The position numbers and the translations under genes are program-made. Of a stretch of 64,000 nt of DNA, positions 8,033-63,185 are shown one piece after another. This DNA comes from an uncultured Candidatus Saccharibacteria bacterium (GTDB taxonomy: Bacteria; Patescibacteriota; Minisyncoccia; UBA6257; WO2-44-18). A model generated the notes under the pieces. The model saw only the letters and a list, made by a program, of their open reading frames with translations. It searched no databases and was not told the origin of the DNA. Location of the stretch: NCBI GenBank assembly GCA_964637575.1, contig CAZWVU010000002.1, positions 82,824 to 146,823 on the forward strand, read 5' to 3'. How positions within the stretch are numbered: position 1 is the first letter of the stretch; the number at the start of each line of letters is the position of its first letter.

Positions 8033-8275
8033 TTAGCCCGGTTTTTGAAACGACCGCTTCTCTTCCAGCGACTGGCGCAGCCGATCCAGATTGATCAGGT
8101 GTTTTTGCCAGGCCTTGCCGTGCGGATTTACCGTCTCGCCGCCACCGACACAGAAAAAGACTGCCTTGCATCGTTCGCACCCCATGAGATCCCCGTTGCC
8201 CGTCTTCCGGTCGCCCCACGCCACGAACACTAGCTGATACCCGCACTCGCTGCAGTAAATCATAGCGCTCTCCAA
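8033..8275 (-). CDS. Small zinc-ribbon protein (two CxxC pairs), heads the copper operon
   Basis: CSECGY ... CERCKA gives a 4-Cys zinc ribbon; the rest of the protein is a short basic tail. Confidence 0.4.
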   Translation of the reverse strand: MESAMIYCSECGYQLVFVAWGDRKTGNGDLMGCERCKAVFFCVGGGETVNPHGKAWQKHLINLDRLRQSLEEKRSFQKPG

Positions 8276-8317
8276 TTTGCTGGATTTATAGTAGCAAAAA
8301 TGGTTAAATATTCATAT

Positions 8318-8388
8318 TCCGAGGTCGTCTAATGGTAGGACAGCAGCCTTTGGAGCTGTGAATCGGGGTTCGATTCCCTGCCTCGGAA
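8318..8388 (+). tRNA. tRNA-Gln (anticodon TTG)
   Basis: Manual cloverleaf: acceptor TCCGAGG/CCTCGGA, anticodon stem GCAGC/GCTGT with loop CTTTGGA, T-arm GGGGTTCGATTCCC. CCA is not encoded. Confidence 0.85.
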
Positions 8389-8400
8389 CAAAAATAAAAT

Positions 8401-8430
8401 ACCCACGCTCATCGTGGGTATTTTATTTTT
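8401..8430 (+). terminator. Intrinsic terminator after tRNA-Gln
   Basis: Hairpin ACCCACG-CTCAT-CGTGGGT followed by ATTTTATTTTT. Confidence 0.6.
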
Positions 8431-8567
8431 CGTTACTTAGATAGTGGGAATCGAAGACCGCAGCGCCGGCCGCCAGCAGGCGGACAAGCGAGGGGCGGGC
8501 TGCGAGAAATTTCCTGCAGGAAATTTACTTGTAGCCGATTCCACCTGTTATTTGTTAAAATTCTCTG

Positions 8568-9122
8568 ATGCAAGAGCTGAACGAAGAACAAAAAAAGATG
8601 GCCACAAGGTCAATGATGTGCAATGCTGCAAAAAACTATGTCAGAAGTATGGAAATACTAGACGAGAACGCCCCGATTTCTGATTGGCACTTATCTTACT
8701 ACTTACTTGCCACTACAAGCCTTGAAGTATCTGCGAAGCTTTTCCTGTTCAATAAAGTTATGCCGGACTTTGAAAATCTTTCGGATATTGAAAAAAAGCT
8801 GAGATCTTTCGATCATGATTTATCCAAAATTTACTCCCCCGAAACAATTGATATAAAATTTCTTCATAAAGCCAAAATTTCTAAAGTAGTCAAAAAAGTA
8901 ACAACTGGGATTTTCCTATATGACTTCAAGCTAATAGAAGATGGGGCAGAGCCAATCCATGTTTATGATGCAGAATCAATTAAATATGGTTTGATGACGG
9001 ATAAAAAGAATTTGGGATTTGTAGGCTACCAACACAAAGAATTATTGAAATTATGCCAAAATGCATTAAATGCTACACTTAGTTTACTGATGGGTTCGAG
9101 CGGTGGTAGTCAGCAAAAATAA
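8568..9122 (+). CDS. Hypothetical all-helical protein in a low-GC islet (possible HEPN-like/Abi-like)
   Basis: The ORF is AT-rich, unlike the roughly 60% GC flanks. The translation is Lys/Glu-rich and helical, with an R-x3-H-D segment (RSFDHD). No confident family assignment. Confidence 0.4.
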   Translation: MQELNEEQKKMATRSMMCNAAKNYVRSMEILDENAPISDWHLSYYLLATTSLEVSAKLFLFNKVMPDFENLSDIEKKLRSFDHDLSKIYSPETIDIKFLHKAKISKVVKKVTTGIFLYDFKLIEDGAEPIHVYDAESIKYGLMTDKKNLGFVGYQHKELLKLCQNALNATLSLLMGSSGGSQQK

Positions 9123-9507
9123 GACGAAGGGCTGGCCAAAGTTGTGCATTGAATCCTTTACTAAAATGAATATATTTAAGGTCCCCACAAAAGAGGCACA
9201 GGATTTAAAGATTGCTTTAGAAAAATTAGGGGCGAGAGTTTTGGTAGAAGTTTTTGACGAACATAAACGAATCGATTTAACAATTCCGGCTGCAAAAATT
9301 AATATTGAAGTTGATGGAATCCACCATCTTACAGACGCCAATCAAATTGTTGCGGATTTAAACCGTAGTTATTATTCAAATAAACTTGGCTATAATACTA
9401 TACATATTCCTAATAAACTCATTCACACGGATTTGGAAGAAATTGCATCTGCGTTAGCCAAAGCTGCAAGAATTAGGGAAGAGCAATTAAACCAGAAAAG
9501 ACAATAA
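9103..9507 (+). CDS. DUF559 (Vsr-like endonuclease fold) domain protein
   Basis: LGARVLVEVFDEHKRIDLTIPAAKINIEVDGIHH ... LGYNTIHIPNKLI matches the DUF559 pattern, which has a D...(E/Q)VDG..H core and a C-terminal G..vlRf.n motif. The true start may be the internal Met at about 9163. The first 17 codons look like a duplicated remnant of the downstream gene's 3' end. Confidence 0.55.
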   Translation: MVVSKNKTKGWPKLCIESFTKMNIFKVPTKEAQDLKIALEKLGARVLVEVFDEHKRIDLTIPAAKINIEVDGIHHLTDANQIVADLNRSYYSNKLGYNTIHIPNKLIHTDLEEIASALAKAARIREEQLNQKRQ

Positions 9508-9530
9508 CTAATCTGCTATACTATCCATAT

Positions 9531-9788
9531 ATGGATCCATTTCATTACTACATTAATACGTGGGGCGGGCATTGGCCGATACTGATGGGAGCCGGCGTGG
9601 CGATCGGGTTGCTGGGGCTAATCTGGGTGCTGTACTGGAAAGCGATGTCGCTCTGGCACGCGGTGAAAAACGGCGAGAAGGCCTGGTTTGTGGCACTTCT
9701 CATTATTAATACCTTCGGCATCCTGGAAATTCTCTATTTGTACTTCTTCTCAAAGAATAAACAGAAAGGCTGGCCGAAATTGGAGTAG
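9531..9788 (+). CDS. Small two-TM membrane protein (DUF5652-like)
   Basis: 85 aa with two hydrophobic helices. The C-terminus is SKNKQKGWPKLE. Confidence 0.45.
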   Translation: MDPFHYYINTWGGHWPILMGAGVAIGLLGLIWVLYWKAMSLWHAVKNGEKAWFVALLIINTFGILEILYLYFFSKNKQKGWPKLE

Positions 9789-9810
9789 TCCCCGGCGCTT
9801 CTGCGGCAAT

Positions 9811-9839
9811 TTGAAATTTCAAATTTTAAATTTAAAATT
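9811..9839 (+). promoter_or_regulatory. Palindromic promoter/operator: TTGAAA-N17-TAAAAT, with -10 ending 5 nt before the ATG (leaderless-type)
   Basis: A perfect 12-mer palindrome TTGAAATTTCAA and an 18-mer palindrome AATTTTAAATTTAAAATT lie immediately upstream of the HMBD-MauE gene. Confidence 0.45.
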
Positions 9840-9844
9840 GAATT

Positions 9845-10462
9845 ATGTATATCTGCCCGATGCATTCGGAGGTTGTCAGCGACCAGCCGGGCCGCTGTCC
9901 GAAATGCGGCATGCGTTTGGTCCTCCGCGAGAACGCCTCACCTGTCCCGCCTATAGCAGATAAAGGACTCGGAACTCTCACCTGGAAAAATTATCTGCCG
10001 CTGATCCTGATCGTCGGATGTATTCTGGCCGCGACCGCGATATTCTCATGGAGCGATCATCAGTCCGGCTCTTTTTCCATTTTCAAATCAATCGGTTACT
10101 TTATGACCGGATTTTTTCTGGTGTTCTCGTTGTTTAAATTGCTGGACATCAAAGGATTCGCGGAAGGATACTCAACCTATGATCTTCTGGCGCAGAAATG
10201 GTTCGGCTATGGGTATGTCTATCCGTTCGTGGAGCTCGGTTTCGGCCTGGCAATGCTCACCGGAATTCGCACTGCGCCATTTTTACTTGCGGAAATCGCA
10301 GTGATGGCCTTCAGTGGCTTGGGCGTATTAATAAAAATTTTACGGCGTGAGCCGGTGAAATGCGTCTGCCTCGGCACGGTTTTGAAAGTCCCGCTTACCA
10401 CCGTCACCCTCGTTGAAGATTTCGGCATGGCCGCACTCGGCCTTTTACTGCTACTCTTTTAA
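9845..10462 (+). CDS. Heavy-metal-binding domain (YxCPMH ... CPxCGM) fused to MauE/DoxX-family membrane domain
   Basis: N-terminal YICPMHSEVVSDQPGRCPKCGMRL matches the HMBD found on CusB/CopA-type proteins. It is followed by 4 TM helices of DoxX/MauE type. Confidence 0.65.
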   Translation: MYICPMHSEVVSDQPGRCPKCGMRLVLRENASPVPPIADKGLGTLTWKNYLPLILIVGCILAATAIFSWSDHQSGSFSIFKSIGYFMTGFFLVFSLFKLLDIKGFAEGYSTYDLLAQKWFGYGYVYPFVELGFGLAMLTGIRTAPFLLAEIAVMAFSGLGVLIKILRREPVKCVCLGTVLKVPLTTVTLVEDFGMAALGLLLLLF

Positions 10463-10469
10463 AATAACT

Positions 10470-10539
10470 GCGAAGTCTTCTGTTCTTCCCGCAGACAGGA
10501 TTGTAGCCCGACGTCCTGTCGAGGAGAAGAACAGAAGAC
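10470..10539 (+). repeat. Hairpin repeat element copy A: conserved 37-nt core CCGCAGACAGGATTGTAGCCCGACGTCCTGTCGAGGA inside a 14-bp outer stem
   Basis: Identical over 70 nt to the inverted copy at 11950-12019. The same core also occurs at 55537-55601 with different but self-complementary outer stems. Confidence 0.8.
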
Positions 10540-10599
10540 GAGCCACCTTGTTGACCGAACCCTATCTTTTGTGGCGTAACTGTGCTACAGTAGGCGCAC

Positions 10600-11934
10600 A
10601 TGAATAAAGAGGAATCGCAGAACGTCAGTTTTACCTCTCTTGGTATCGCTCCGGCGCTCTTAGAAACATTAACCCGCCTCAAATACGTCACCCCTACGCC
10701 GATTCAGGCGCAGGCAATTCCGGTTGCCGTAACCGGAAAAGATGTGGTCGGGATCGCCCAAACCGGCACCGGCAAGACGCTCGCCTTCGGTATTCCGATG
10801 ATCCAGCGCCTCTCCCAGATCAAGGGAAAAGGCCTGATCGTGTTGCCTACCCGCGAACTCGCCGACCAGGTGGAGGAAACAATCAAAAAGATCGGCAACA
10901 ACCACGTCCGCACCGCGCTTCTGATCGGCGGCGCTTCGATGTTTGCCCAGAAGCAGGCTATTATGCGCGATCCGCATATCGTCATCGCCACCCCGGGCCG
11001 CCTCATCGATCATATGGAACAGCGCAATATCAGCCTTGGTAAAGTGGAGATTCTGGTGCTTGATGAAGCCGACCGTATGTTTGACATGGGATTCGCCCCG
11101 CAACTCCGCAAGATCATGGACGCCATTCCGAAAGAACGCCAGACCATGCTTTTCTCCGCGACGATGCCGCCGGAGATCATGAAGATTGCGAGCGGCCACA
11201 TGAAACTCCCCGTCCGCGTGGAAGTCGCCCCCGCCGGCACGACTGCCGACCGCGTCACCCAGGAAATTTTCATGGTGCGCAAGGAGGAGAAGAACCGCCT
11301 CGTCGAAAAATTACTCACCCAATATCCGGTGACCACGCTGATCTTTACCCGCACGAAATTCGGCGCGAAGCGCCTGGCCCGCACCATCCGCGATATGGGA
11401 TCCACCGCCGCCGAACTCCACTCCGACCGTTCGCTCGGCCAGCGCCGCGAAGCGCTGGATGGTTTCAAGACCGGCAAGTATCGCGTCCTTGTCGCGACCG
11501 ATATCGCCGCGCGCGGCATCGACGTTACCGGCATCGGCCTCGTCCTTAACTATGATCTTCCGATGAACACCTCCGACTACGTGCACCGCATCGGCCGCAC
11601 GGCCCGCGCCGGCGCCGGAGGCCATGCCATTTCCTTTGTGGCGCCCGAACAGCGCGGCGAAGTGCGCGAGATCGAACGCCTCATCAAGAAGAGTCTGCCG
11701 CTTTCCAAGATGCCTACGGATCTTCCGCCTGCCCGCGTACAGGAGCGTCCCCAGTATTTTGAAGAAGAACGCCCCCGTTTCGGCCGCGGACGCCGTCCAG
11801 GTTTTGGTTCCCGTCCGTCCCGTCCCGGTTTCGGATCGCGCCCTTCATTTGGCAGCCGTCCGCATGGCCCGCGTCCCGCCGGATCTTCCGATGGCCGCTC
11901 CTCATTCCCCCGCCGGCGTTTCCGCCGCGGCTAA
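10600..11934 (+). CDS. DEAD-box ATP-dependent RNA helicase with C-terminal RG/RGG-rich tail
   Basis: Q-motif region, AQTGTGKT (motif I), PTRELA, DEAD, SAT and HRIGRTARAG are all present. The C-terminal 80 aa are rich in RGRRPGFGSRPSRPGFGSRP. Confidence 0.95.
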   Translation: MNKEESQNVSFTSLGIAPALLETLTRLKYVTPTPIQAQAIPVAVTGKDVVGIAQTGTGKTLAFGIPMIQRLSQIKGKGLIVLPTRELADQVEETIKKIGNNHVRTALLIGGASMFAQKQAIMRDPHIVIATPGRLIDHMEQRNISLGKVEILVLDEADRMFDMGFAPQLRKIMDAIPKERQTMLFSATMPPEIMKIASGHMKLPVRVEVAPAGTTADRVTQEIFMVRKEEKNRLVEKLLTQYPVTTLIFTRTKFGAKRLARTIRDMGSTAAELHSDRSLGQRREALDGFKTGKYRVLVATDIAARGIDVTGIGLVLNYDLPMNTSDYVHRIGRTARAGAGGHAISFVAPEQRGEVREIERLIKKSLPLSKMPTDLPPARVQERPQYFEEERPRFGRGRRPGFGSRPSRPGFGSRPSFGSRPHGPRPAGSSDGRSSFPRRRFRRG

Positions 11935-37694: not shown

Positions 37695-38750
37695 TTAAGG
37701 AGTTCCTACCACCGTGGCCACATTGTCAAACTCATTGGTTTCCTGGATGACGTTATTCGGATCCACGGAAACTGTGGCGCTGTACACTGTCCCGGGCGTG
37801 TAGGTCAGGCCCCAGGTATCGTAAGTCCACTGCTTGGGCTGACACTTGCCGGCGGCGTACGCCTCCGGTATGTCAAAGCTCTTGGTCACGCCATTGAGGA
37901 CTATATTAACCGGGAAGCTGGTCAGCGTTACCGTACCCAGGTTGCAGAAGGTCGCCTGCACCCCGGTGCTTTTCAGAATCACGCTGCGCACCGACAAATG
38001 GGCGCCTGGCAGAGCGGGCACCTTTACCGAGGCTGACTGCGACTGGCTGGCCGGAAACGCCAACGAGCCGATCTTGTAGACATTGTTGGGATCGATGAGC
38101 CCGATGGCGGTAAAGGTAGCGCCGGGGTCATAGGACAATCCCCAGGTCTCATACTTCCAGGTGTCGGTCGTGCAAGTTCCGGCTTTTTGGGCGCCGATCG
38201 CTTCAAAGTCGCGGTTGATCCCGTTCAAACGGATGCGGAAAGGAGCGGTCGGCAGATCGGACGTACCTTGGTTGCAGAAGGTCGCGCTTACTCCGTTGGA
38301 ATCCAGAACCAGGTTAGTGATGGCCAGCTTAATACCGCTGGTCGGCACGGGAACGCTGGCGGACGCGCGGCAACCGTAGAGCACTTGCAGTTTCAACCGG
38401 GTGATCGTCCCCGGGAAACCGGTGCCCTTGGTCAGGCCGAACGGAGCGAGGATATCGCTGACGTATTTTTCCTGGAATTTCGCCACCGCCGACCTGGTGC
38501 TTTTGCCAAAGTGCCCAAATTCGGCCGCGTCAACATTGAAGCCCTCCTTGGACAAAGCCAGCTGCAGGTTGAGCAGTCCGACCTGATCGGCCGGGTCGTT
38601 GCCGGGATTCAATTTTATGACCGCGGAAAAATCCATGCAGGCATTTTGCGGCGGCGGCATTAAAGGAGCCGTCTGGGCCAGCGAAACGACCGGCATGACA
38701 CCGGTGGCAGCCAGCGCGATGAGCGCGAAAATTCTTTTAATGTTGTGCAT
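37695..38750 (-). CDS. Secreted protein: peptidoglycan-binding domain (PG_binding_1-like) + two tandem CARDB-like beta domains
   Basis: Signal peptide, then LNLQLALSKEGFNVDAAEFGHFGKSTRSAVAKFQ, which is PG_binding_1-like. Two repeats of about 100 aa follow (FCNQGTSDL ... WGLSYDPG / FCNLGTVTL ... WGLTYTPG). Confidence 0.55.
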   Translation of the reverse strand: MHNIKRIFALIALAATGVMPVVSLAQTAPLMPPPQNACMDFSAVIKLNPGNDPADQVGLLNLQLALSKEGFNVDAAEFGHFGKSTRSAVAKFQEKYVSDILAPFGLTKGTGFPGTITRLKLQVLYGCRASASVPVPTSGIKLAITNLVLDSNGVSATFCNQGTSDLPTAPFRIRLNGINRDFEAIGAQKAGTCTTDTWKYETWGLSYDPGATFTAIGLIDPNNVYKIGSLAFPASQSQSASVKVPALPGAHLSVRSVILKSTGVQATFCNLGTVTLTSFPVNIVLNGVTKSFDIPEAYAAGKCQPKQWTYDTWGLTYTPGTVYSATVSVDPNNVIQETNEFDNVATVVGTP

Positions 38751-38893
38751 ATTTTTATCTTTAATTTTTAGTTTTTAAGTTGCTCGACCTTTGTTTTTAT
38801 ATTTTCTAATCATAGCAAATAAATGGCATTCGGGCGCATCGGAGCTGTGGACAAGTAAAAACCGCCGGTCAGGGCGGGAGCGCCTCACAAGTT

Positions 38894-39121
38894 TTAGCGA
38901 TTATTGTTCAGGTACTTACTGGCAACACTCAACGCGAATGAGGGCAGAAGGATGAACAAGGTGGTGAACATCAGCTTCATGAATATAAAGTGTAAGGGCG
39001 TGCCGTTGTTGTCTCCGTTTTCCGGCAAGGTCAGCACATTTAAAATTCCGGCAATACCAAACAGAACCGACGAACAGATAAATAAACGTGTCGCTATTTT
39101 TTGCATAAGGTAAGTATACAT
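38894..39121 (-). CDS. Small membrane protein, hypothetical
   Basis: 75 aa with two TM helices. The listed ORF is trimmed to the internal Met because its 5' part is the antisense of tRNA-Asn. A terminator-like hairpin lies at about 38852-38878. Confidence 0.3.
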   Translation of the reverse strand: MYTYLMQKIATRLFICSSVLFGIAGILNVLTLPENGDNNGTPLHFIFMKLMFTTLFILLPSFALSVASKYLNNNR

Positions 39122-39228
39122 CAAAAACACCGGCGGCAAATTATCGTATTTCGTGATGAGATAATTTACTTGAAAATACATTGTAAAATGTATTACCATA
39201 TTAGTCATAAGTAGTTTGAGCATTCCGC

Positions 39229-39300
39229 TCCCCGGTAGCTCAGCGGTAGAGCGGCGCCCTGTTAAGGCGACGGTCGTAGGTTCGATCCCTACCCGGGGAG
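39229..39300 (+). tRNA. tRNA-Asn (anticodon GTT)
   Basis: Acceptor TCCCCGG/CCGGGGA, D-arm GCTCAGCGGTAGAGC, anticodon loop CTGTTAA, T-arm GTAGGTTCGATCCCTAC and discriminator G. CCA is not encoded. Confidence 0.85.
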
Positions 39301-39323
39301 CAGAGTGCTTGATCTTTAGCTGT

Positions 39324-58960: not shown

Positions 58961-60115
58961 ATGAGTCGTTTTTTTGTTGACCTGTTCCTGTATGCTTATG
59001 GTGTGAGAATTATTGCTCATCTCGATATGGACGCCTTCTTCGCTTCAATCGAAGAACGCGACCATCCGCGCTACCGCGGCAAACCGCTTGTCGTCGGCGC
59101 CGATCCGGAGGAAGGCCGCGGCCGCGGCATTGTCTCCACGGCAAATTACGCCGCCCGCAAATTCGGCATTCACTCCGCGATGCCTATTTCCACCGCCTGG
59201 CGGCTCGCGGAAAAAGCCCGGCTGGCTGGCGCGCCCCGGACAATCTTTGTCGGCGGCCATTACCGTAATTATTCCGCGACTTCCGCGCGCCTCATAGCTA
59301 TCGTCAGACACATTGTGCCGCTCGTGGAGCAGGCCAGCGTGGATGAGGCCTACCTCGATCTCAGCTTCGCCAAGACGTATGCGTGGGCAGAGAAAATCGC
59401 TTTGAAAATAAAGGTGGAGATCAAAAAGAAAGAAAAGTTGACCTGCTCCATCGGCATCGGCCCCAACAAACTGATCGCCAAAATTGCCGTAGGTATGCAC
59501 AAACCCGACGGCCTGACCGTCGTCCCCGAAAAAGACGCCGAAACATTTCTTGAACCGCTCCCGATCCGCACCATTCCCGGCGTCGGACCGAAAACAGAGA
59601 GCGTCTTCGGCGTCCGCGGTATTCGTACCGTCAAAGACCTCAAGCGTTTCAGCCGGTCCGAGCTTTCCGACTGGCTGGGCAAATGGGGCTACGTTCTCTA
59701 TGACCGGATCCGCGGGCGCGACGACTCGCCGGTTGTGGAAGAATACGAGGTGAAATCCATCGGCGAGCAGACCACGTTCCGGGAAGACACCCGGGACGCC
59801 AGTCTGGTCACCGAGGAAATGAAAGCCCTGTGCGCCAGCGTCATCCGGAGTTTTCTTCAGAGCGATTTCCGTTCGTTCCGCACCGTCAGCATCACCGTCC
59901 GGTTTGAGGACTTTGAAACCAAGACTCGCGCCCACACACTTTCCGAAACCAAGGATAAAATCGGCAATCTTTTCGAACAGCAGTCTCCGAAAAAACTCAC
60001 CGAGTTTCTCCAGTTTGAAGCGATGAAACTTCTTGCCCCATTTTTCGATACACGTGAAAATCCCCGGCGCAAAAAGATCCGGTTAGTGGGGGTAAGAATA
60101 GAAAAACTTGTCTGA
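58961..60115 (+). CDS. dinB: DNA polymerase IV (Y-family, DinB)
   Basis: HLDMDAFFASIEERD (catalytic DMD), and SIGIGPNKLIAKIA ... KPDG palm/finger motifs. Little-finger domain at the C-terminus. Confidence 0.9.
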   Translation: MSRFFVDLFLYAYGVRIIAHLDMDAFFASIEERDHPRYRGKPLVVGADPEEGRGRGIVSTANYAARKFGIHSAMPISTAWRLAEKARLAGAPRTIFVGGHYRNYSATSARLIAIVRHIVPLVEQASVDEAYLDLSFAKTYAWAEKIALKIKVEIKKKEKLTCSIGIGPNKLIAKIAVGMHKPDGLTVVPEKDAETFLEPLPIRTIPGVGPKTESVFGVRGIRTVKDLKRFSRSELSDWLGKWGYVLYDRIRGRDDSPVVEEYEVKSIGEQTTFREDTRDASLVTEEMKALCASVIRSFLQSDFRSFRTVSITVRFEDFETKTRAHTLSETKDKIGNLFEQQSPKKLTEFLQFEAMKLLAPFFDTRENPRRKKIRLVGVRIEKLV

Positions 60116-60194
60116 TTTGGTATTATTAAACCTATCAACCAAAAAGGACGCCTGCTTGACATTTTAACCAAATTAATTTAATATTTCCCCTATC

Positions 60195-63185
60195 ATGACC
60201 AAATCCAAAAAGGTTCCGCAGCGATCGATTTCCCGAAAGGTCCAGGCAATTCTTACCGGTACCGCCATTCTTTTTCAATTGGCATTGCCGGTTTTTTCAT
60301 TCGCGACCACGCCCGTAACGCTTTTCAGCGACGGATTTGAATCCAACGACTTCAGCCATTGGACGTCCGCGGACAACACCGGCTCGGCGGGCAAATGGGA
60401 CGTGCTCGGCGGCGATGTTCACGCCGGCAGTAAGAAAGCCGAAATGAAAGGCAGCACCAGCAGCGACATGAGTATTGCCAAAACCCAGTCCACTGCTGGA
60501 TATGAAAACATCGTACTCTCCTACTGGTACAAAGTTGTTTCCGGCAAAGAGCTGGAATCCAACGATCATCTCTATGTTGAATGGTCCGTTAACGGCACGG
60601 GCTGGACTCAACTCACTGATTACTCCGCCGCGCCCTCCAGTTCTTCCTGGACGCAGGCCAGTTTCAGCTTGCCGGCCGGCACCGCCAACCAGAGCGGGTT
60701 CCGCTTCCGTTTCCGCGCCAATATGGACTCGGCCAACGACCTTGTACGTTTTGATGATGTGGCACTCACCGGCACCGCAATTGTGACGCCTCCCCCGGCC
60801 GTGACCGGTTCCATCTCCGGCATGAAGTTCGGCGATGCCAACGCCAATGGCGTCCAGGATAACGGCGAAGCCGGCCTTTCCGGCTGGACGATCACCTTGT
60901 CCGGTCCGGCGAGCGCCTCCGCTGTTACCAATGCGGGCGGAAATTATTCTTTCGCCTCCCTTGCCGACGGTACCTATACTGTTTGCGAAACAATGCAGTC
61001 CGGCTGGAGCCAGACTTTCCCGGCGAGCGGTGCTGCGTGCACAGGCGGCTTTGGGTATTCCGTCACGATCAGCGGCGGCAACACGGTGAGCGGCGAAAAT
61101 TTCGGCAACGTTCAGCACGGCCACCTGATCGTCACGAAAGTTACCGATCCGGCGAATGATGCCCAGCAGTTTTCCATTACCGCGACTGGCGACGGCACGG
61201 TCTTCAGCAACGCCACCCAGAATATTTCCGCCCTTTCCCCGGTTAATTACGAAGTTAATCCGGGAACCTATTCCGTGAGCGAAGCCGCAGTCTCGGGCTG
61301 GTCCAATACCGGCAATACCTGCGTGAATATCACGGTGGCGGCTGGTGCCACGGCGACCTGCACGATCACCAACACCAAGTTCGGCTCCATTTCCGTTATT
61401 AAAATCGCCGATCCTGCCCAGGGCACGTTCGGTTTCACTCTGACCGGCGGCGATTACTCCCAGACCCAGAGCGTGACGATCGGCCAGAACAGCAATACCA
61501 CGGTCTTTTCCAGCCTGATGCCCGGCGCCTACACCCTGACCGAAAGCTCCGTTCCGGAAGACTGGACGAATGCCAGCATGACAACCAACTGCGGCGGCAC
61601 GATCACCCTTTCCGCCGGCGGCAGCGTGACCTGCACGATCAATAACACCCAGTATGCCGTTATCACTGGCAAAAAGTTCAATGACCTGAACGCCAATGGT
61701 GTGAATGACAGCGAACCGGCACTTTCCGCCTGGACAATGACGCTCACCGGCACTGATGAAAACCAGAATCCGGTCAACAGCTCCGTCCAGACCGATGAGA
61801 ACGGCAATTACTCGTTCACCAGTCTGATGCCGGGCACCTATACCGTCTGCGAGCAGATGCAGGAGGGCTGGCACCAGTCCGCTCCCGCGAGCGGCGCCGA
61901 TTGCCAGGGTTCCAATGGTTACACGGTCACGGTAACCGCGGGCGCCACCGCCGGCAACAATGATTTCGGAAACTTCCAGGACAACGACGCCCCGGTAAGT
62001 TCCTTCAACGATCCGCTTGATCACAAAGTAATCAACACGGAGATTGTTTCGCTCAACTTGAGCGGCACCTCGGCCGACCAGGTTTCCGGCGTGCAAACCC
62101 TTGAGCTGACGGTTGCCGAAATCGGCGGCCCCGATTCCGTCGCGCAATATCCGTCCTCCAGCTTTTTCGACGTCTTCACGCCGCTTGATTGCGCGACCGC
62201 CCAGCCCGTCGCGACCGAACTCGTTTCGCTGACGCTGACGAACGGCGCCTGGAGCCACGACTGGACTCCCGCCGAATCTGGCCTCTATTGCTTCAGTTTG
62301 AAAGCGACTGACAAAGTCGGCAATGTTGAAACCAGCGTCTTCGCCGGACCGGTTGCCTATGTGCCGGTGGTGCAGATTTCCAATCAGAACGCCGGTACGC
62401 CGGGCGAAACTTCGTTCACCGTCACCTGGGACACCGACAAGCCGGCGACCAGCCGCGTAGTGTTCGACACGGTTCCCCACGCCACGCTCGGCACCCAGCC
62501 GAACTACGGCTATGCGCTTTCCAGCGTTGAATCCGATGTTGATCCGACGGTTATCAACCACTCCGTCACCCTCTCCGGCCTCACCTCCGGTACGACCTAC
62601 TACTATCGCGTGATCTCCCACGCCTCTCCGGAATCCGTAAGCTCCGAGGGCAGCTTCACGACCGCGACCCCGGCGCCTGCACCGGCTCCGGAGCAGCCGC
62701 CTGTGAATACCGATAATACTTCCGGTAGTGGTGGCACTTCTTCCAGCGGCGGATCCGGTTCCTCCGGCGGTGGCGGCAACGCGACCAATGATCCGAGCGT
62801 AAATAACGATCCGGGCAGCTTTATTCCGGGATGTTCTCCGAGCGGTTGCACGCTCGCGACCCAGGGCGGCAATTCCAATCAGGAAACGCCTGCTCCGAAT
62901 CCGACGTTAGCACTTGCCAACACGTCCGGCCCGGTTACCGGCGGCAATGAAGTCGGCAATTCCGGCGAAAACGCTGCACCTTCCAACGAAGTAGCGGCCG
63001 CGCCCGCCGGAAATGAAGCTCCGGCGGCCGAACAACCGGCGGCGCAAAACCCTGGCCTGCTCGCGGCGCTCGGCAGTCTTATCGGATTCGGCGGCAGTCC
63101 CTGGTCCAGCCTTCTTTTCTGGATCGTGGTGCTGCTTGCGATCTATCTGACCTACCGCCAATTCCGGAAAAAGAACAACCAATAA
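60195..63185 (+). CDS. Large cell-surface adhesin-like protein: lectin-like N-domain, SdrD/Cna-B-type and DUF11-type repeats, Fn3-like domain, Ser/Gly-rich stalk, C-terminal TM anchor
   Basis: Signal peptide. Repeated blocks of the form GxKFxDxNANGVxDxxEPxLSxWTxTL (at 60830 and 61680). A C-terminal Fn3-like segment (FTVTWDTDKPATSRVVFDT ... YYYRVIS), a GSGG-rich stretch and a final TM plus RKKNNQ. Confidence 0.75.
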   Translation: MTKSKKVPQRSISRKVQAILTGTAILFQLALPVFSFATTPVTLFSDGFESNDFSHWTSADNTGSAGKWDVLGGDVHAGSKKAEMKGSTSSDMSIAKTQSTAGYENIVLSYWYKVVSGKELESNDHLYVEWSVNGTGWTQLTDYSAAPSSSSWTQASFSLPAGTANQSGFRFRFRANMDSANDLVRFDDVALTGTAIVTPPPAVTGSISGMKFGDANANGVQDNGEAGLSGWTITLSGPASASAVTNAGGNYSFASLADGTYTVCETMQSGWSQTFPASGAACTGGFGYSVTISGGNTVSGENFGNVQHGHLIVTKVTDPANDAQQFSITATGDGTVFSNATQNISALSPVNYEVNPGTYSVSEAAVSGWSNTGNTCVNITVAAGATATCTITNTKFGSISVIKIADPAQGTFGFTLTGGDYSQTQSVTIGQNSNTTVFSSLMPGAYTLTESSVPEDWTNASMTTNCGGTITLSAGGSVTCTINNTQYAVITGKKFNDLNANGVNDSEPALSAWTMTLTGTDENQNPVNSSVQTDENGNYSFTSLMPGTYTVCEQMQEGWHQSAPASGADCQGSNGYTVTVTAGATAGNNDFGNFQDNDAPVSSFNDPLDHKVINTEIVSLNLSGTSADQVSGVQTLELTVAEIGGPDSVAQYPSSSFFDVFTPLDCATAQPVATELVSLTLTNGAWSHDWTPAESGLYCFSLKATDKVGNVETSVFAGPVAYVPVVQISNQNAGTPGETSFTVTWDTDKPATSRVVFDTVPHATLGTQPNYGYALSSVESDVDPTVINHSVTLSGLTSGTTYYYRVISHASPESVSSEGSFTTATPAPAPAPEQPPVNTDNTSGSGGTSSSGGSGSSGGGGNATNDPSVNNDPGSFIPGCSPSGCTLATQGGNSNQETPAPNPTLALANTSGPVTGGNEVGNSGENAAPSNEVAAAPAGNEAPAAEQPAAQNPGLLAALGSLIGFGGSPWSSLLFWIVVLLAIYLTYRQFRKKNNQ

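Follow-up and report, generated by a model that had tools for sequence, protein, structure and literature searches.

The 64,000-nucleotide stretch analysed here (the window), part of a contig from an uncultured Candidatus Saccharibacteria bacterium, carries a small islet of low GC content beside a tRNA-Gln gene. Inside this islet lie two plus-strand open reading frames (ORFs), which encode a helical protein of 184 amino acids (aa) and a DUF559 nuclease. The intact gene of a small DUF5652 membrane protein begins at most 23 nucleotides (nt) past these ORFs, and the HMBD-MauE gene comes next (Table 1). At approximately 8507, the GC content drops from about 0.55-0.6, and it stays at 0.32-0.39 until about 9525. 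With a minimum of 0.335, this trough is the deepest in the window (mean 0.547, standard deviation 0.045) and lies 4.7 standard deviations below the window mean. Split into its parts, the GC content is 0.357 in the 184-aa gene, 0.342 in the DUF559 gene and 0.496 in the DUF5652 gene, compared to 0.585 in the left and 0.564 in the right flank. The GC profile thus bears out the initial annotation, which had placed a low-GC islet next to tRNA-Gln.

Table 1 Features of the islet and its surroundings (coordinates are those of the window)
Feature	Coordinates	Strand	Remarks	Evidence
tRNA-Gln	8318..8389	+	anticodon TTG, without encoded CCA	ARAGORN; Rfam tRNA, 62.8 bits
Terminator-like hairpin	8390..8430	+	perfect 18-bp stem, 5-nt loop, T-run	repeat search
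GC-rich spacer	8431..8506	+	3' of the terminator hairpin	
Perfect palindrome, 20 nt	8507..8526	.	AAATTTCCTGCAGGAAATTT; at the point of the GC drop, 41 nt 5' of the 184-aa start codon	
184-aa protein gene	8568..9122	+		ORF
Relic of a second DUF5652 gene	9112..9144	+	11 codons, SKNKTKGWPKL	counterpart of residues 74-84 of the intact neighbour
DUF559 gene, 113 aa	9166..9507	+	ATG start; the longest ORF, from GTG 9103, would include the relic	
Intact DUF5652 small membrane-protein gene, 85 aa	9531..9788	+		Pfam DUF5652, E = 4.7e-19
HMBD + MauE membrane-protein gene, 205 aa	9845..10462	+	GC 0.51, outside the islet	Pfam

The tRNA-Gln gene represents a conserved anchor at the left side of the islet, and an Rfam scan of 8200-10700 gave this tRNA as the only match. 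The initial annotation had also suggested a search for direct repeats of the tRNA 3' end. Within the window, the last 16-24 nt of the tRNA are not repeated, even with mismatches allowed, and the ORFs from 8033 to 10462 gave no match to a recombinase or integrase family beyond noise. Exact-protein look-ups returned only the same locus, on three short public contigs (L001-L003; loci are referred to by such numbers) that carry the identical arrangement base for base. From these features and the comparisons below, we conclude that 8507-9525 is most probably recently acquired low-GC DNA residing in a variable slot 3' of tRNA-Gln in this chromosome of the Patescibacteria (Candidate Phyla Radiation, CPR).

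The protein encoded by the DUF559 gene of the islet falls into the Vsr/DUF559/EDxHD clade of PD-(D/E)xK nucleases and comprises only the catalytic core. Pfam DUF559 (PF04480) was matched by the C-terminal two thirds of the protein only, with 21.9 bits at a cutoff of 20.6 (E = 1.7e-4). We retrieved 19 homologues (49-69% identity, 102-130 aa) which, where named, belong to Paceibacterota or Patescibacteria; D31, K34, D37, E48, D50, G51 and H54 are invariant in this group (18 sequences). A profile of the homologues matched the crystal structure of a DUF559 protein, PDB 3hrl (E = 0.005), with the stretch vDF...vEaDGgqH aligned to the motif. When the AlphaFold model (predicted local distance difference test, pLDDT, 81.6) was submitted to Foldseek, 3r3p, the catalytic domain of the homing endonuclease I-Bth0305I (PMC3239194), and 3hrl were both returned with a probability of 1.0 (template modelling (TM) scores of 0.56-0.73). 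They were followed by the Vsr-like domains of PvuRts1I and AbaSI, and E. coli Vsr (1cw0) ranked far below 3r3p and 3hrl. ORFs, Pfam and fold match therefore agree with the initial annotation that the islet encodes a 184-aa protein and a Vsr-like DUF559 protein. As the metal-binding D...ExDG..H site is intact, the 113-aa protein should nick or cut DNA. With the DUF559/Vsr-like endonucleases (PF04480; 3HRL, NGO0050; 1CW0) it shares this motif, an alpha/beta core of about 100 aa and the structural match to 3hrl. In contrast to Vsr, it is much shorter, has no linked cytosine methyltransferase in view and roams as a single-gene insert in CPR genomes.

With respect to the start of this protein, the gene callers on the three public contigs use ATG 9166. 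None of 18 homologues carries the N-terminal SKNKTKGWPKLCIESFTK extension that a start at GTG 9103 would add, so that the SKNK...GWPKL stretch indeed lies outside the nuclease fold, as had been proposed. Two of the closest homologues begin with MYKKSTKEA and MFKKSTREA, and the window protein with MNIFKVPTKEA. ATG 9166, giving a protein of 113 aa, is most likely the start.

We then considered where relatives of this nuclease gene occur. Loci were obtained from protein look-ups and one metagenome scan, and 88 of them scored as DUF559 relatives, mostly from Paceibacterota where named. Their position is almost never shared: the 141 ORFs flanking them fell into 119 clusters. In most hosts, which have a low GC content, the gene is host-like in composition, and in hosts of higher GC content it forms a sharp single-gene low-GC islet. 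At L004, it has a GC content of 0.36 compared to 0.55-0.62 and lies between dnaN and a PBP1A gene; at L066/L067 (0.35 compared to 0.49), it starts 4 nt after the stop codon of glyS, with an M16 peptidase gene next. A 184-aa-family gene was found at none of the 88 loci, and neither a DUF5652 gene nor a KGWPKL-like remnant was present near or upstream of them. Because nearly every locus differs in context and none carries a 184-aa relative, DUF5652 or the remnant, we conclude that the DUF559 gene is transferred, actively or passively, on its own, with low-GC Paceibacterota as its home and the window as foreign ground. IMG/VR contained a single match to DUF559 relatives, which was distant and partial.

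Two of the DUF559 loci have neighbourhoods of their own kind. At L005:2146-6354, the homologue follows an RNase H gene and a trio of SMEK_N/CTD10, MC6 and DUF2326, which looks like a conflict system. L065:49-4706 is an island linked to a tRNA-Gln(ctg) and comprises genes for a 380-aa membrane/zinc-ribbon protein, a 347-aa protein with a weak DUF5677 match, a 185-aa unknown protein, DUF559 and a convergent Fic. The 185-aa protein, which lies upstream of DUF559, was compared as a possible hidden member of the 184-aa family, but an hhalign probability of only 0.2% led us to reject this.

The 184-aa protein belongs to a small group of sequences. A word-indexed search matched only the protein itself, a full HMMER scan across 1.84 billion representatives yielded only 25 relatives, most of them 160-195 aa long, and a profile search of the indexed database added few further sequences. 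There was no corresponding family in Pfam, PADLOC, PHROGs or NCBIfam, and the family was absent from IMG/VR in a search with a narrower alignment. Within the family alignment, L47, E53, K57 and H83 are invariant, and Y89, E136 and S137, among others, are nearly so. In the AlphaFold model (pLDDT 94) of this cytoplasmic, helical protein, a hairpin of two long helices is accompanied by short helices around H83, a beta-hairpin and a helix at the C-terminus. The last approximately 10 residues are non-conserved and modelled with low confidence, and their codons run into the DUF5652 relic.

Foldseek gave nothing significant for this model (E > 0.1). The matches with the best TM scores (0.39-0.55) were HEPN domains, namely 4nqf, 1wol, the sacsin HEPN domain and a phage 'HEPN domain-containing protein', and one family member showed a sub-threshold match to Pfam HEPN_RiboL-PSP. 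With the HEPN superfamily (PDB 4NQF, 1WOL, sacsin HEPN 3O10; Pfam HEPN_RiboL-PSP) the family shares a long helical hairpin bundle of similar size, and like the HEPN proteins of defence islands and toxin-antitoxin systems it sits among Fic, restriction-modification (R-M) and nuclease genes. However, the HEPN motif Rx4-6H is not conserved, a basic residue being found only at position -4 of H83 and in 17 of 23 sequences; the invariant E53 and K57 and the inserted beta-hairpin belong to this family alone. PADLOC-DB produced no consistent match across the family; single members matched PDC-M30A (E = 0.0025) and KwaA (E = 0.011). Matches to PDE10A in a profile search of the PDB (E ~0.1) were dismissed as chance. 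The 184-aa protein thus represents an undescribed family that is, at most, weakly HEPN-like.

Including the window, we collected nine independent contexts of the 184-aa family. In four of them, the family gene is closely preceded by a tRNA-Gln gene of the same orientation: in the window (ttg, 178 nt), at L121/L122 (ttg, 37 nt), at L127 (ttg, 327 nt) and at L124 (ctg, with two small genes in between). Among 60 control loci of similar size from the DUF559 set, tRNA-Gln occurred in two and never in the same geometry (Fisher p = 1.5e-4 for the geometry, p = 0.002 for any presence). At L127:2616-2954, the last 20 nt of tRNA-Gln(ttg) together with 14 more are present in three copies spaced by 152-153 nt, the third of which ends 9 nt before the ATG of a 179-aa family member. 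The two intervening 137-nt units share 96% identity. Of the 34-nt copies, the first and second are the same, the third matches at 76%, and the tRNA-derived 20 nt are exact in all three. These tandem repeats resemble the att sites that repeated integration or excision at the 3' end of tRNA-Gln would leave behind. A 3' CCA is encoded by the tRNA-Gln genes at L121, L124, L127 and L065, unlike in the window.

Other landing sites of the family are behind conserved genes such as dnaN, dnaX and rpsI. At L125:2952-3494, the family gene is the only one between dnaN and PBP1A, with a GC content of 0.385 compared to 0.52 and 0.58. L125 and L004 are both from Paceibacterota and are collinear (rpmH-dnaA-dnaN-[slot]-PBP1A), with flanks that are about 65% identical. 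The same dnaN-PBP1A slot is thus occupied by a 184-aa-family gene in L125 and by DUF559 in L004 (6001-6375), each lone and of low GC content. Elsewhere, genes of conflict type surround the family. At L036, HTH_17 and Fic genes lie upstream and a Cas4-like PDDEXK_1 nuclease gene downstream; at L038, a type ISP R-M enzyme is encoded upstream and HTH-Fic followed by PDDEXK_1 downstream. The family gene of L121 is followed after 28 nt by a gene for a membrane region plus an Mrr_cat nuclease (E = 8e-19), both genes having a low GC content (0.32-0.34 compared to 0.48), and at L127 an RNaseH_like protein (E = 9e-43) is encoded downstream. The 215-aa downstream partners at L040 and L036 were also compared and are unrelated. 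DUF559 was found in none of the eight other family contexts.

The initial annotation had placed the two islet genes in a toxin-antitoxin, abortive-infection or defence setting. The general idea of a conflict setting fits the neighbours of the 184-aa family (Fic, type ISP R-M, Cas4-like, Mrr and RNase H-like), but a toxin-antitoxin pair is not supported. With 0/88 DUF559 loci and 0/8 other family contexts paired, and with each gene also found on its own (DUF559 in L004 and L066, the 184-aa family in L125), the lack of co-occurrence argues against an obligate toxin-antitoxin module.

A further line of evidence comes from the DUF5652 relic. Its counterpart in the intact gene is SKNKQKGWPKL at 9750-9782, after which that gene continues with E and the stop codon to 9788; the DUF5652 3' end sequences are AAAGGCTGGCCGAAATTGGAG and AAAGGCTGGCCGAAATTGGAGTAG. 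Relic and intact gene agree in 10 of 11 residues and in 23 of 33 nt (70%, or 77% over a 30-nt core). The match that had been reported at about 80% nucleotide identity and at 9757-9788 is therefore real, although both the identity and the coordinates required correction. In a six-frame tblastn search of the window, the relic was the best non-self match of the DUF5652 protein (E = 0.004), and it lies only 640 nt from the end of the real DUF5652 gene. Beyond its borders, similarity falls to random level (8/36 and 6/36 identities), and tblastn detected no further DUF5652 fragment upstream of 9112 in any frame. The 10 differing nucleotides affect 7 of the 11 codons, 6 of them synonymously, including AGC versus TCA for serine, and in none of 200,000 simulations of ten random substitutions was at most one amino-acid change left. 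We conclude that the KNKxKGWPKL match to the DUF5652 end is not due to chance. Judged by the pattern of changes, the relic derives from another DUF5652 gene, an old paralogue or an orthologue of foreign origin, which was still under selection while it diverged from the surviving copy. The almost exclusively synonymous divergence makes it the stump of a second, long-diverged DUF5652 gene rather than a fresh duplication. The notion of a captured gene end hence holds, but that of a fresh duplication scar does not, as 6 of the 7 changed codons are synonymous.

On its left side the relic runs across the stop codon of the 184-aa gene, on its right side 21 nt separate it from the DUF559 start, and its codons share the reading frame of the DUF559 ORF. 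It therefore does not mark an insertion at the edge of the islet, as had been assumed, and instead marks the place where the two islet genes meet. Whatever the order of events, part of an unrelated gene in this position speaks against arrival of the two ORFs as one operon. The stretch from the relic into DUF559 (9103-9507) is in frame and free of stop codons. By analogy with the membrane-region plus Mrr_cat partner at L121, an ancestral membrane-anchored DUF5652::DUF559 fusion is conceivable.

Taken together, we favour, with moderate confidence, a reading in which two independent conflict-type cassettes are stacked at a tRNA-Gln hotspot. Two single-gene cassettes that move separately among Paceibacterota genomes would have come to lie side by side here. 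One would be the 184-aa gene, landing behind tRNA-Gln or other conserved genes and usually among nuclease, Fic and R-M genes, with a product that may act on or sense nucleic acids or a partner enzyme. The other would be the 113-aa nuclease gene, whose product is predicted to nick or cut DNA. A second DUF5652 gene may once have been present here or in a donor, and DUF559 could have lodged at its very end, as it did against dnaN or glyS elsewhere. The 184-aa cassette would then have arrived from the tRNA-Gln side and removed the rest of this second DUF5652 gene. Acquisition may have occurred by recombination anchored in a conserved flank (the tRNA gene) or by tRNA-Gln-directed integration as in L127, with an integrase supplied in trans or since lost. 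Both genes are most likely independent nucleic-acid-directed conflict genes, either defensive or selfish, and not toxin plus antitoxin. With tRNA-gene-associated islets and defence hotspots, the islet shares the position 3' of a tRNA, the foreign composition and the conflict-type cargo, and L127 has att-like repeats. It differs from these in comprising only 1 kb and two genes, without integrase or att duplication, and its cargo families also occur in slots away from tRNA genes, such as dnaN-PBP.

Several points weigh against two stacked cassettes. A nuclease gene directly follows the family gene on the same strand in 4/9 contexts (window, L036, L121 and L127), encoding a member of one of three PD-(D/E)xK families or an RNase H-like protein, L121 has the layout of the window (tRNA-Gln, family gene and PD-(D/E)xK nuclease, as a low-GC pair), and no terminator is predicted between the 184-aa gene and DUF559. 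Adjacency and the L121 layout may point to a two-gene system of modular type whose nuclease can be exchanged. Both protein activities are predictions. The searches showed no empty site and no ancestor with DUF5652 genes in tandem, so that the order of events is deduced. The window proteins tested formed clusters of 1-2 sequences from the same NCBI/Logan sources, and a genome-contig scan with the MauE protein gave relatives of at most 66% identity, none of them syntenic.

The alternative closest to these points is a two-gene conflict module in which the 184-aa protein serves as HEPN-like sensor, immunity protein or RNase for an exchangeable DNA nuclease, be it a toxin-antitoxin, abortive-infection or restriction-like system. 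The nuclease adjacency, which rises from four to five of the nine contexts if L038 with its nuclease two genes downstream is counted, the layout shared with L121, the missing terminator and the weak HEPN signals from Foldseek and HEPN_RiboL-PSP all favour it. However, the family gene of L125 has no partner, the family is near none of the 88 DUF559 relatives, and the fragment of an unrelated gene between the two genes is unexpected for a unit that moves together. Moreover, the partners represent families without relation to one another, and variable islands often contain genes of this type in any case; PADLOC gave no match, and the canonical HEPN motif is not conserved. We therefore regard this module as possible but rather doubtful. 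A broader version, in which the 184-aa family constitutes an unrecognised Patescibacteria module with interchangeable nucleases (DUF559, Cas4-like, Mrr, RNase H-like), or else in which both genes belong to an integrase-free pool of single-gene cassettes hopping between the same conserved slots by a novel mechanism, is a speculative and unlikely possibility. Another scenario takes DUF559 as a free-standing homing-type endonuclease acting on the DUF5652 3' end. The relic would then be the remainder of a homing site interrupted two codons ahead of the stop codon, and spread would occur through cleavage of cassette-free alleles. This agrees with I-Bth0305I as source of the closest solved structure (3r3p, probability 1.0), with the single-gene low-GC inserts flush against conserved genes and with the end of the relic similarity at 9144/9145, where the DUF559 unit begins. 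In addition, the Vsr/DUF559 clade of PD-(D/E)xK nucleases is reported to include a group I intron homing endonuclease (PMC3424549). Both the I-Bth0305I gene and the DUF559 gene of the window are patchy, selfish-looking small inserts. Yet the relatives share no common target or insertion site (141 flanking ORFs in 119 clusters), no DUF5652 gene or relic occurs near the other loci, and there is neither intron nor intein. The 113-aa protein is a catalytic core only and lacks the extra DNA-binding region that reportedly gives I-Bth0305I its long target. Insertion into DUF5652 would also have put the intact gene upstream of the nuclease gene and not downstream. Homing thus appears improbable.

If the nuclease were instead a housekeeping Vsr-type T:G mismatch nickase serving a cytosine methyltransferase elsewhere in the genome, the 184-aa gene would be an unrelated neighbour without a conflict role. 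The Vsr-like fold and motif and the native GC content of the gene in most low-GC hosts, as expected of a long-term resident, would be in line with such a function. There is also a precedent in Caulobacter VsrA, a Vsr-like DUF559 protein encoded on its own and connected in function to a methyltransferase whose gene lies elsewhere (PMC12907096). However, DUF559 is foreign in this genome, its position is patchy and ever-changing, and Foldseek places 1cw0 far below 3r3p and 3hrl. A crude regular-expression scan for motifs IV and VI of C5-methyltransferases gave no match in the window, which is a small part of the genome. We consider a repair function very unlikely. Finally, no insertion may have taken place at all, with native genes whose low GC content reflects their amino-acid composition and a chance lysine-rich similarity behind KNKxKGWPKL. 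In its favour, no empty-site allele was found among the relatives searched, and neither att repeat nor integrase was detected. Against it stand the depth of the GC trough, the equally sharp low-GC single-gene islets that the same gene families form in other high-GC hosts, and the relic with its window-wide E value of 0.004, its distance of 640 nt from the gene end and its bias towards synonymous changes. An origin without insertion is hardly credible.

We thus view the islet as a real and fairly ordinary variable islet, not as a demonstrated toxin-antitoxin pair. CPR/Patescibacteria genomes are tiny, and little is known of how they gain genes or defend themselves. Small variable islets with nuclease cargo at a tRNA gene are of a well-known kind; new here are an uncharacterised 184-aa family with a preference for tRNA-Gln and single low-GC genes that alternate in the same CPR slots. 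One-gene low-GC cassettes slot flush between housekeeping genes, one slot can hold different cassettes, and tRNA-Gln is a recurrent landing site. The relic provides a rare internal time-stamp, suggesting that the islet was built in steps. If the 184-aa family were a component of defence or immunity, it would add a CPR-specific system.

At the left border of the islet, the palindrome AAATTTCCTGCAGGAAATTT is unique in the window, and 0/100 shuffles contained a match even with 3 mismatches allowed. An attachment or operator role had been proposed for it; its presence was confirmed, but this role lacks evidence, as neither the palindrome nor anything similar was found upstream of other 184-aa-family members. 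For 8431-8567, the predicted RNA fold has a free energy of -54.8 kcal/mol (z = -3.8 compared to 200 shuffles, single sequence). In this fold, 8446-8453 pairs with 8535-8541 and the palindrome forms one hairpin within. The palindrome is also the exact break point of two public assemblies, which is probably an effect of the inverted repeat on the assembler.

On the right-hand side, the best relatives of the MauE protein are 56-66% identical and stem from metagenome-assembled genomes labelled Saccharibacteria, Gammaproteobacteria, Bacteroidetes and Thermoplasmata. Apparently, this gene has often been exchanged between phyla. As its GC content is also below that of the flanks, the foreign region may reach as far as ~10560. 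A 26-nt inverted repeat (85% complementary, 13-nt loop) follows the MauE gene at 10475-10539 of the window, and L001 and L003 end there. Two further GC dips were noted in the window. The second-deepest (0.41) at 38701-39250 is situated directly 5' of a tRNA-Asn (39229-39301) and includes a small membrane-like ORF on the minus strand. The third, a mild dip (0.42) at 59901-60350, coincides with the junction of a 384-aa and a 996-aa ORF.

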